A DNA stretch of 13,664 nt from a virus (IMGVR_UViG_3300024268_000043:1-13664), one strand, 5' to 3'. Positions 12,435 to 13,664 are shown, counted from the stretch's first letter. Notes: a model not told the origin generated them from the letters alone. Program-made: numbers and translations.

Positions 12435-12686
12435 ATGACAATCAATAGAACACATTTGATTTTAATGACAATATTATACAAAAACAAAGCGACATCGGCC
12501 GGAACGGCTATTACAACAGAAGAAATGAAGAATTATTGCAATATAGGCAAAAGCGATTCGACTTTCAATAGGGCTTTTCGTTTTCTTCAAAATGAGGGAT
12601 ATATCAACAAGGGTGTTAAGGACGGGAAATTCTCTACCTACTACATCACAGAAATTGGAACAAAAAAATTATTGGAGGTAATGTAA
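12435..12686 (+). CDS. tubR: Winged-helix DNA-binding protein, TubR-like centromere-binding adaptor
   Basis: RBS GGGAG (12421-12425) is 9 nt before ATG 12435; the track's TTG at 12429 is an in-frame alternative. 83 aa with an HTH 'TTEEMKNYCNIGKSDSTFNRAFRFLQNEGYI' and wing 'KGVKDGKFSTYYITEIG'. It lies immediately upstream of, and 1 nt from, a TubZ-like gene, as in phage c-st. Confidence 0.7.
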   Translation: MTINRTHLILMTILYKNKATSAGTAITTEEMKNYCNIGKSDSTFNRAFRFLQNEGYINKGVKDGKFSTYYITEIGTKKLLEVM

Positions 12687-12687
12687 T

Positions 12688-13664
12688 ATGCGTGAACAAT
12701 TTGGAGTTTTATCTTTGGGACAATGTGGAGGAAATATCGGGCGCGAGTTTGAGCGATTGGGTTATACTACTGTTTATGTAAATTCAAGTCAAAGCGATCT
12801 TGCAACGATTAATGGAACACACAAGATTCACATCCCAAATGCGGACGGGGCCGCGCGTGACAGAAAAAGAGTTTTGCAGTTGGCATCAGAGCACATTATG
12901 GATATTGTAGATAAGATTACTACCATCTTGACTCATAAATACATTATTTGTACATTCAGTTCAAGCGGAGGAACGGGGTCTGGGCTAAGTATTCCATTGA
13001 TGACATATCTAACTCAAATAGGCAGAGTTTGTATACCAGCAATTGTTTTACCAGACGATAGGGTCGAAAGTGCAAAGGCGTGTGAAAATGCTTATAACAC
13101 ATGTGTAGAAATTATGAACATTAAAAATTTAGGAGCAACCTTTCTTTTGGACAATGCAAGACACGATAAGTTTGCTATCAACACTAGATTCGCTAAAGAA
13201 CTTGATGCTTTTATTAATCTTAAGAATGATAGTATATATGGGGTGATCGACCCAGCGGAGCGCAAACAAATGTTATCTTGCTATGGTATTTCAGTACTTG
13301 CAAAGTTAAGCAAATCTCGCAGTACTGCCTCCGACATTCTTGATGCTCTACACAATGGAATATATGCCGAAATTACCTCAAAATCAGCGATGTACTTAGC
13401 ACTTTCTACTAGTAACAGGTCTCTGGACATCACTAACATTACTAGAGAATTTCAAGGTGTTTATGACAGTTACTTAGGCATCTCTGACTCAACTTCTGTT
13501 GCTATGATTTCAGGATTACAGTTTCCGAGTAAGATTCTAAATAAATTTAGAATAAAGTTCGAAGAAACTGTCAAGAATATGAATGGTGGTAATTTCATTC
13601 AAGATTTTGCACCATTGGAACCACTAAAGGGGTTATCATTTACGAGAGAGCAAGTTACACCTAC
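12688..13664 (+). CDS. tubZ: Tubulin/FtsZ-superfamily GTPase, TubZ-like partition motor (3'-truncated by the window)
   Basis: RBS GGAGG at 12674-12678. The frame is open from ATG 12688 to the window end (325 codons): MREQFGVLSLGQCGGNIG (T1), YVNSSQSDL (T2), DGAARDR (T3), SSSGGTGSG (tubulin signature, 12964-12984), FLLDN, GVIDPAE (T7, 13240-13260). Motif order and spacing match clostridial phage TubZ (c-st: GQGGGN...INTS..DL...EGCGKER...GGTGSG...YLLDN...GVVDEDE, from memory). Confidence 0.88.
   Translation, partial: MREQFGVLSLGQCGGNIGREFERLGYTTVYVNSSQSDLATINGTHKIHIPNADGAARDRKRVLQLASEHIMDIVDKITTILTHKYIICTFSSSGGTGSGLSIPLMTYLTQIGRVCIPAIVLPDDRVESAKACENAYNTCVEIMNIKNLGATFLLDNARHDKFAINTRFAKELDAFINLKNDSIYGVIDPAERKQMLSCYGISVLAKLSKSRSTASDILDALHNGIYAEITSKSAMYLALSTSNRSLDITNITREFQGVYDSYLGISDSTSVAMISGLQFPSKILNKFRIKFEETVKNMNGGNFIQDFAPLEPLKGLSFTREQVTP

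Follow-up and report, generated by a model that had tools for sequence, protein, structure and literature searches.

A predicted c-st-type TubR-TubZ partition module beside a large serine recombinase gene in an uncultured siphophage lineage of the gut or rumen

Among phages, c-st alone has been the subject of experimental work on type III (tubulin-based) partition, and the other models for this class of machinery are plasmids of Bacillus. The c-st TubZRC(Y) system (TubR, CST190; TubZ, CST189; PDB 3V3T, 4XCQ and 6TEY) is encoded on a large siphophage genome that is maintained as a plasmid prophage (PMC8026635; PMC6009700), and in known systems the tubC centromere always lies 5′ of tubR, overlapping the promoter (PMC6009700). 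A further protein, TubY, is present in c-st and in many Bacillus systems and is an accessory rather than a core component. Here we describe a tubR-tubZ pair, arranged in the same order as in c-st, at the end of the first 13,664 bases (the window) of an 81,747-bp IMG/VR virus record, IMGVR_UViG_3300024268_000043. An original prediction from the DNA alone had placed tubR- and tubZ-like genes here and had noted that the GTPase was missed by the open reading frame (ORF) track; both ORFs are indeed present, tubZ runs off the window end, which is the probable reason for the omission, and the proposed c-st-type identity is upheld by profile, fold and tree alike. From sequence comparisons and predicted structures we conclude that the module is a real, selected c-st-type type III TubR-TubZ partition system with a compact candidate centromere. 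The type of system is known; the novelty lies in a divergent ribbon-helix-helix (RHH) gene, a short repeat array, a linked serine integrase and the failure to detect TubY. The components, with coordinates counted from the first base of the record, are as follows.

12118-12144: G+C-rich hairpin with a 12-pair stem and runs of A and T on either side (terminator scan)
12143-12295, minus strand: Arc/CopG-type RHH gene, divergent from tubRZ (Pfam Arc, phrog_582)
12314-12342, minus strand: RHH promoter, TTGACA, 17 bases, TATAAT (12 of 12 consensus positions)
12333-12398, plus strand: five direct boxes, GTGMT(N2-3)CA, starting at 12333, 12344, 12357, 12368 and 12390; candidate tubC and operator
12348-12377, plus strand: tubRZ promoter, TTGACA, 18 bases, TGcTATCAT, with an extended -10 (11 of 12 consensus positions with the TG)
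12435-12686, plus strand: tubR, encoding an 83-residue winged-helix protein, predicted to bind the centromere (hhalign, fold)
12688-13704 of the record, cut by the window at 13664, plus strand: tubZ, encoding a tubulin/FtsZ-fold GTPase of 338 residues (profile, fold, conserved residues)
About 13709-13741 of the record: terminator hairpin 3′ of tubZ
13878-15824 of the record, minus strand: integrase-type large serine recombinase (LSR) gene, convergent 3′ of tubZ (phrog_95, 1e-91; CcrB/XisF-like)

Profile, fold and tree evidence fully support the predicted assignment of TubZ as a c-st-type GTPase. The protein scores 39 bits against the Pfam Tubulin family (PF00091; cut-off 33) and 20.8 against TubZ_C_3, under the cut-off of 27; it has no match to the Pfam FtsZ C-terminal domain (FtsZ_C), and no NCBIfam model matches either TubZ or TubR. 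By single-sequence comparison its top solved relative is c-st TubZ (4xcq/3v3t) with an E-value of 7e-20, against 0.03 for RepX, 0.18 for FtsZ and 0.29 for PhuZ, and a family profile built from 75 members recovers c-st TubZ at 4e-87, followed by CetZ at 2e-30, RepX at 3e-22, FtsZ at 1e-15 to 1e-22 and PhuZ at 3e-13. The AlphaFold model (pLDDT 89.6) likewise superposes best on c-st TubZ (TM 0.88, 2.4 Å rmsd). The expected nucleotide-binding motifs are conserved, namely the GGTGSG signature (residues 94-99) and the T1 loop GQCGGN (11-16), and G11, G14, N16, G94-G99, N156, N165, D188 and E191 are invariant or nearly so. The acidic T7-loop residues D188-x-x-E191, which would serve GTP hydrolysis inside the filament, align with the VDEDE segment of c-st TubZ and are near-invariant in the 75 family members. 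Beyond the fold, residues 305-327 are predicted to be disordered and to be followed by a modelled helix (328-337), in which 24 relatives all keep R329, D330, L332 and L335.

In a quick maximum-likelihood tree with E. coli FtsZ as outgroup, this TubZ sits in its own clade (SH-aLRT 100), nested deep within a broad c-st-like radiation, outside which fall both the Bacillus TubZ/RepX proteins and E. coli FtsZ; the deep nodes are weakly placed, and PhuZ forms a long branch of unresolved position. The tubulin-family profile search and the phylogeny that the original prediction had called for thus give a PF00091 score above cut-off and no grouping with FtsZ. Scores and tree together reject an identity as FtsZ, and the scores reject an identity as PhuZ. 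TubZ relatives of this kind are numerous, forming 563 clusters at the 50% level (E ≤ 1e-3).

The partner gene fits the same pattern. Its ORF was listed as 12429-12686, but every relative begins at ATG 12435, which gives a protein of 83 residues. Compared with c-st TubR by hhalign, the TubR family profile matches over its full length with a probability of 98.7%, an E-value of 3e-16 and 33% identity, and the AlphaFold model (pLDDT 90.5) finds its two best PDB folds in TubR of pBM400 (4asn, TM 0.84) and TubR of c-st (6tey). It lies just 5′ of tubZ, whose start at 12688 falls one base past the tubR stop and is served by its own GGAGG ribosome-binding site, and the two genes are predicted to constitute a translationally coupled, co-transcribed operon. 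In both proteins c-st is the reference relative, as the top sequence and fold match for TubZ and, for TubR, as the hhalign match and one of the two best folds; the divergence is nevertheless considerable, with identities to the c-st proteins of just 22-25% for TubZ and 28-33% for TubR. The TubZRC systems of Bacillus pBtoxis, pXO1 (RepX) and pBM400 are of the same type, and the TubR fold is nearest to that of pBM400, but their TubZ proteins (435-484 residues) are much more distant in both searches and in the tree.

Upstream of the operon, two promoters face each other in a 106-bp spacer between the RHH and tubR starts (12296-12434 including leaders), and their -35 boxes together form a palindrome, TGTCAAGgtgCTTGACA, which is invariant in 9 relatives. 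The five direct boxes overlap both promoters. They are the only cluster of at least four GTGMT(N2-3)CA boxes in the 81.7 kb, the motif having been defined after the region was viewed, and all five positions are retained in 9 relatives whose coding DNA is 71-81% identical, with boxes 2 and 4 invariant. Because tubC of known systems lies 5′ of tubR over the promoter, we consider the array the best tubC candidate. Relatives with other TubR types carry different short repeats at a spacing of about 10 bp, as in L020, where CAATG/CATTG occurs four times at exactly 10 bp. Furthermore, natural swaps among relatives indicate that the left half of the spacer tracks the RHH type and the right half the TubR type, a pattern with which physical linkage is confounded.

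The divergent gene scores 23.4 bits against Pfam Arc (cut-off 20.4) and 2.9e-9 against the Arc-like repressor family phrog_582. Its mechanical ORF extends to TTG 12328; relatives align from residue 12-15 of this long ORF, and the product is most likely a 50-residue protein starting at ATG 12295. The hairpin at 12118-12144 probably terminates transcription in both directions, that of the late operon and that of the RHH gene. An 11-base element, ACAAAATGATT, is present in 29 copies in the record, one of them 5′ of the holin gene, but is absent from the RHH-tubRZ module; with terminators at both sides as well, the tubRZ operon has the look of a self-regulated unit insulated from its surroundings.

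About 45 loci from IMG/VR and metagenomes share this arrangement (tail, holin, RHH on the minus strand, tubR, tubZ, LSR) with intact reading frames, and the dN/dS values are low for both tubR (0.09-0.19) and tubZ (0.12-0.21), a sign of purifying selection. The identities of TubR, TubZ, RHH and LSR are uncoupled among the relatives, as in locus L022, where TubR is 94% identical and TubZ only 58% (dS 0.35 versus 2.8), and recombination therefore shuffles the parts of the module.

The comparison with c-st extends beyond the two proteins. In both phages repeats lie 5′ of tubR over the promoter, and both encode a PolIII alpha-type replicase. The c-st tubC, however, exceeds 350 bp and is made of TTGAC and A/TGAA iterons (PMC6009700), compared with five boxes in about 66 bp here; c-st has TubY, in place of which we find the divergent Arc-like RHH gene 5′ of the operon; and c-st carries a Xer-type recombinase (PMC8026635), as opposed to the integrase-type serine recombinase next door in the present phage.

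Three further sets of elements place the locus among plasmids and phages. The best TubZ tblastn E-value (3e-19, 29% identity) is given by pCP_P201 of C. perfringens (NZ_CP143272.1), an unstudied 93-kb circular plasmid that has a TubR-like gene 5′ of its TubZ gene (hhalign 94.5%), a complete set of siphophage virion genes and a PolIII alpha 38% identical to that of the phage. It differs in being half the size, in having a tyrosine-type integrase gene, and in that no RHH neighbour is annotated and no PF07508 'Recombinase' domain was found in it; its lifestyle is known solely from the plasmid deposit. By PolIII alpha, the closest cultured phages are C. difficile phiCD5763, phiCD2955/LIBA2945 and phiCD211, with 42.5% identity for the phiCD2955 group, which shares the replisome order (PolIII alpha, RecJ, primase, helicase), a YopR-like and XerC pair, and the layout in which recombinase genes sit at the switch between late and early blocks. 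They are reported to exist as circles outside the chromosome (PMC5786514); matches are limited to 7 of 112 ORFs, however, and in place of TubRZ these phages have ParM-like genes of actin type (PMC5786514). Finally, a 124.5-kb plasmid of B. pumilus has both TubRZ and an LSR.

As a separate observation, pCP_P201 (loci L060 and L084) encodes terminase, portal, capsid, tail, tape measure and amidase proteins together with TubR/TubZ and PolIII alpha; it is a phage-plasmid that was deposited simply as a plasmid.

With respect to physical state, tail, holin and tubRZ genes share one contig, so that the virion and the partition system are encoded on a single replicon. Circularity, which the original prediction had proposed to check, is found in three complete relatives of 166-175 kb, all of them circular assemblies: the two ends of G002 (174,761 bp) overlap exactly over 123 bp, those of a 165,582-bp contig assigned to a fecal metagenome-assembled genome overlap exactly over 141 bp, and the contig ends of G001 wrap inside the LSR gene. 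The longest contigs with these TubZ proteins cluster at 151-174 kb, except for one outlier of 341,764 bp, about twice 170.9 kb, where the assembly may be doubled or the copy integrated. Downstream sequence of 10 kb is available for 11 loci, and in every one of them the LSR is followed by phage genes.

Together, these features suggest a model in which the TubR-TubZ-tubC module would act on the phage's own circular genome when it is extrachromosomal. TubR dimers would occupy the five direct boxes over the tubRZ promoter, forming a small nucleoprotein complex and repressing the operon, and TubZ would assemble with GTP into treadmilling filaments; the disordered C-terminal tail of TubZ, with its conserved end helix, could catch the TubR-DNA complex. 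Filament growth and shrinkage would then separate sister copies and deliver the prophage to both daughter cells. The Arc-like RHH protein, expressed from the face-to-face promoter, might provide a second layer of control in the place held by TubY in c-st, while the LSR could mediate integration as an alternative state or have another recombination role. In this model, binding of the boxes, polymerization and the plasmid state itself are what we infer.

Because only circular phage-only assemblies were found, and because the comparators known from culture are plasmid-like (c-st is extrachromosomal, and pCP_P201 and phiCD2955 are entered in databases as a circular plasmid or phage genome), a plasmid prophage is plausible, and we judge the chances to be about even that the phage persists as a plasmid or at least a facultatively episomal prophage. 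Several observations weigh against such a state. All copies are metagenomic, and virion or replicating DNA would likewise assemble as circles; partition genes alone do not establish a plasmid state, a warning given in PMC8026635 with reference to AlpAC of the CGP3 prophage. The candidate centromere, at about 66 bp, is short compared with the 130 to >350 bp of known tubC regions (PMC6009700), and its boxes could be bound by the RHH protein or by TubR. The search for TubY proposed with the original prediction was negative, a c-st TubY query giving no match at E ≤ 1 in the record or in four relatives at least 95% complete by single-sequence search. Wherever the flank is long enough, an LSR adjoins tubZ, with its type swapped among the loci (23-95% identity), and one related lineage, L089-L091, keeps the RHH and LSR genes without tubRZ, from which it follows that tubRZ is accessory or dispensable and that the RHH gene does not strictly belong to it. 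The extrachromosomal prophage originally predicted is accordingly favored by the circular phage-only assemblies and the plasmid-like comparators, and disfavored by the LSR beside tubZ, the undetected TubY and the tubRZ-less lineage. Of the findings that the original prediction had named as telling against it, namely a grouping with FtsZ, a degenerate tubRZ or an integrated copy, none was seen in the loci and genomes covered.

The constant presence of an integrase-type LSR beside tubZ, wherever the flank suffices, and its retention by the tubRZ-less relatives are what would be expected if the phage integrated through this enzyme, as SPbeta does, and if TubR-TubZ served only off-chromosome DNA, in lytic-cycle positioning or transport or in a brief hold of the excised circle, like AlpA/AlpC of CGP3 or PhuZ. 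Serine integrases are not known to act as plasmid resolvases, and the pair formed here by a YopR/MrpR-like gene and a tyrosine-recombinase gene is one we take to resemble the SPbeta arrangement. A precedent exists in CGP3, an integrated Corynebacterium prophage, whose AlpA/AlpC filament and adaptor are of plasmid type and serve this integrating prophage in replication (PMC4446434, as cited in PMC8026635); the pair is actin-type rather than tubulin-type, and has no sequence relation to TubR-TubZ. The strong host-type promoter and the autoregulation-type layout, which are typical of maintenance modules, speak against an integrating phage, and a limited search of the roughly 45 loci, 3 complete genomes and species-representative genomes revealed no integrated copy or host junction. 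Neither was an attP identifiable, and no inverted repeats flank the LSR. The original prediction had proposed to check for the lack of an integrase, and the element is not integrase-free; the LSR is not decisive against a plasmid state, however, since phages of the phiCD2955 group, reported as extrachromosomal (PMC5786514), also have genes annotated as integrases. As to PhuZ of the Pseudomonas jumbo phages 201phi2-1 and phiKZ, it too is a phage tubulin-fold GTPase that moves phage material, and the original prediction had raised a role of this kind; it is, however, a far weaker match than c-st TubZ in both sequence and fold, and TubR is present here. PhuZ-type systems are not known to have a TubR or a centromere. 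On balance, we regard integration with a purely off-chromosome role for TubR-TubZ as somewhat unlikely.

The two states could also be combined in a two-mode lysogeny, in which the tubRZ operon and the LSR would operate as one conserved module. The prophage could then enter the chromosome or be kept as a partitioned plasmid, for instance during a phase of excision, and the Arc-like RHH protein and TubR would set the state at their shared face-to-face promoters; this we consider doubtful. The uncoupled identities of tubR, tubZ, RHH and LSR, a tubZ relic in locus L025 and the tubRZ-less lineage might instead suggest a mobile, selfish or decaying cassette that does nothing for the phage life cycle, or a TubR that is only a transcription factor, but intact frames in about 45 loci, dN/dS values of 0.09-0.21, conserved catalytic residues and a fixed position make this very improbable. 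It is equally hard to credit that TubZ is aimed at the host, for instance to disturb FtsZ and cell division during infection: the two proteins share the tubulin/FtsZ fold, but sequence and tree alike set TubZ well apart from FtsZ, it lacks a match to the FtsZ C-terminal domain, and its gene is paired, and predicted to be co-transcribed, with that of a TubR homologue equipped with a repeat array.

A divergent yet intact tubulin partition system is carried by a large family of uncultured phages, in a version where RHH takes the place of TubY, the array is very compact and an integrase is the constant neighbor. Should these phages be plasmid prophages, phage-plasmids would be commoner in gut and rumen Firmicutes than the cultured examples imply, and the natural swaps of tubR, tubZ and repeat type would offer a ready set of specificity variants; should they integrate, the module would clearly exemplify the reuse of partition machinery by a phage that integrates.

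The record that carries the module has a G+C content of 38%, lacks end repeats and is 48% complete according to CheckV, and relatives at least 95% complete measure 162-175 kb. The phage itself is an uncultured large siphophage of roughly 165-175 kb and of anaerobic Firmicutes type, in agreement with the original prediction of a large siphophage different from c-st, and its lineage is one of the gut or rumen. The genes around the module are the following.

371-1198, plus strand: Dit-like tail protein
1211-5239, plus strand: minor tail protein
5256-8870, plus strand: fibre-like tail protein
9178-11271, plus strand: DUF859 protein, among the upstream tail proteins
11329-11787, plus strand: membrane protein of 152 residues, with a membrane segment at its N terminus and a coiled-coil-like central part
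11804-12112, plus strand: holin gene, the last late gene ahead of the tubRZ module (phrog_6918, E 9e-9)
16027-16566 and 36383-37204 of the record: wall hydrolases

The holin scores below threshold against Pfam Phage_holin_6_1. The 152-residue membrane protein, encoded between the tail genes and the holin, is 57-89% identical among relatives and has no family match; it may be a lysis accessory. The original placement of the partition genes directly after the lysis genes holds for the holin and this membrane protein, both adjacent, and fails for the wall hydrolases, which lie further along the record. Beyond the tubRZ module the record turns to a long minus-strand block that encodes the LSR, the wall hydrolases, NrdDG, nucleotide and NAD enzymes and an RNA-repair set, together with PolIII alpha, RecJ, a DnaB-like helicase and two genes of tyrosine-recombinase fold. 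The 313-residue YopR/MrpR-like protein matches phrog_5830 at 5e-20 and MrpR_N_CB at only 1e-3, under the cut-off.

The element ACAAAATGATT occurs in the window at 11776 and at 28 further sites of the record (18083-81332). Many genes, that of the holin among them, have it in the sense direction just 5′ of their ribosome-binding site, usually with ACA ahead of it, and its single copy in the LSR region lies within the LSR coding sequence (15095).

Two loci record past exchanges within the module. In L025 (11090-11218) a relic of the 3′ end of a second tubZ directly follows the resident tubZ, which is 47% identical to the TubZ described here; the relic is 81% identical to residues 288-330 of the latter and looks like an allele-replacement scar left by recombination. 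In L089, L090 and L091 (e.g., L090:6500-7900) the RHH start lies about 160 bp from a terminator-like hairpin, which is followed by a 66-residue ORF and the LSR; this hairpin is similar to the tubZ terminator of L046, and a blastn comparison gave no nucleotide-level deletion scar beyond it. The arrangement suggests that tubRZ was lost from this lineage through deletion.

The neighborhood of the LSR shows comparable mobility. A conserved small block 5′ of the LSR (record about 15860-16026, minus strand; L008:4704-4846), possibly an ORF of about 55 residues, keeps its orientation in L008 although the LSR gene there is inverted relative to the record, and the LSR therefore behaves as a cassette able to sit either way. 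Loci L011, L020 and L021, from sister samples, end at an identical base about 170 bp past tubZ. Since this shared break falls inside the 3′ end of the LSR gene, it is probably an assembly-graph fork at the swapped LSR cassette, and a genome end or an att site is the less likely reading. Between the tubZ and LSR terminators lies a 36-bp near-palindrome, TAAATATAAAAAATAcatggaTATTTTTTATGTTTA (record 13776-13811; L002:776-811), which is conserved in L019 and absent from L046 despite the same LSR type, and which could be a recombination site or functionless. Farther along the record, a minus-strand ORF of 124 residues (71045-71419) resembles the N-terminal catalytic domain of serine recombinases, with 24-34% identity to the LSRs of relatives.

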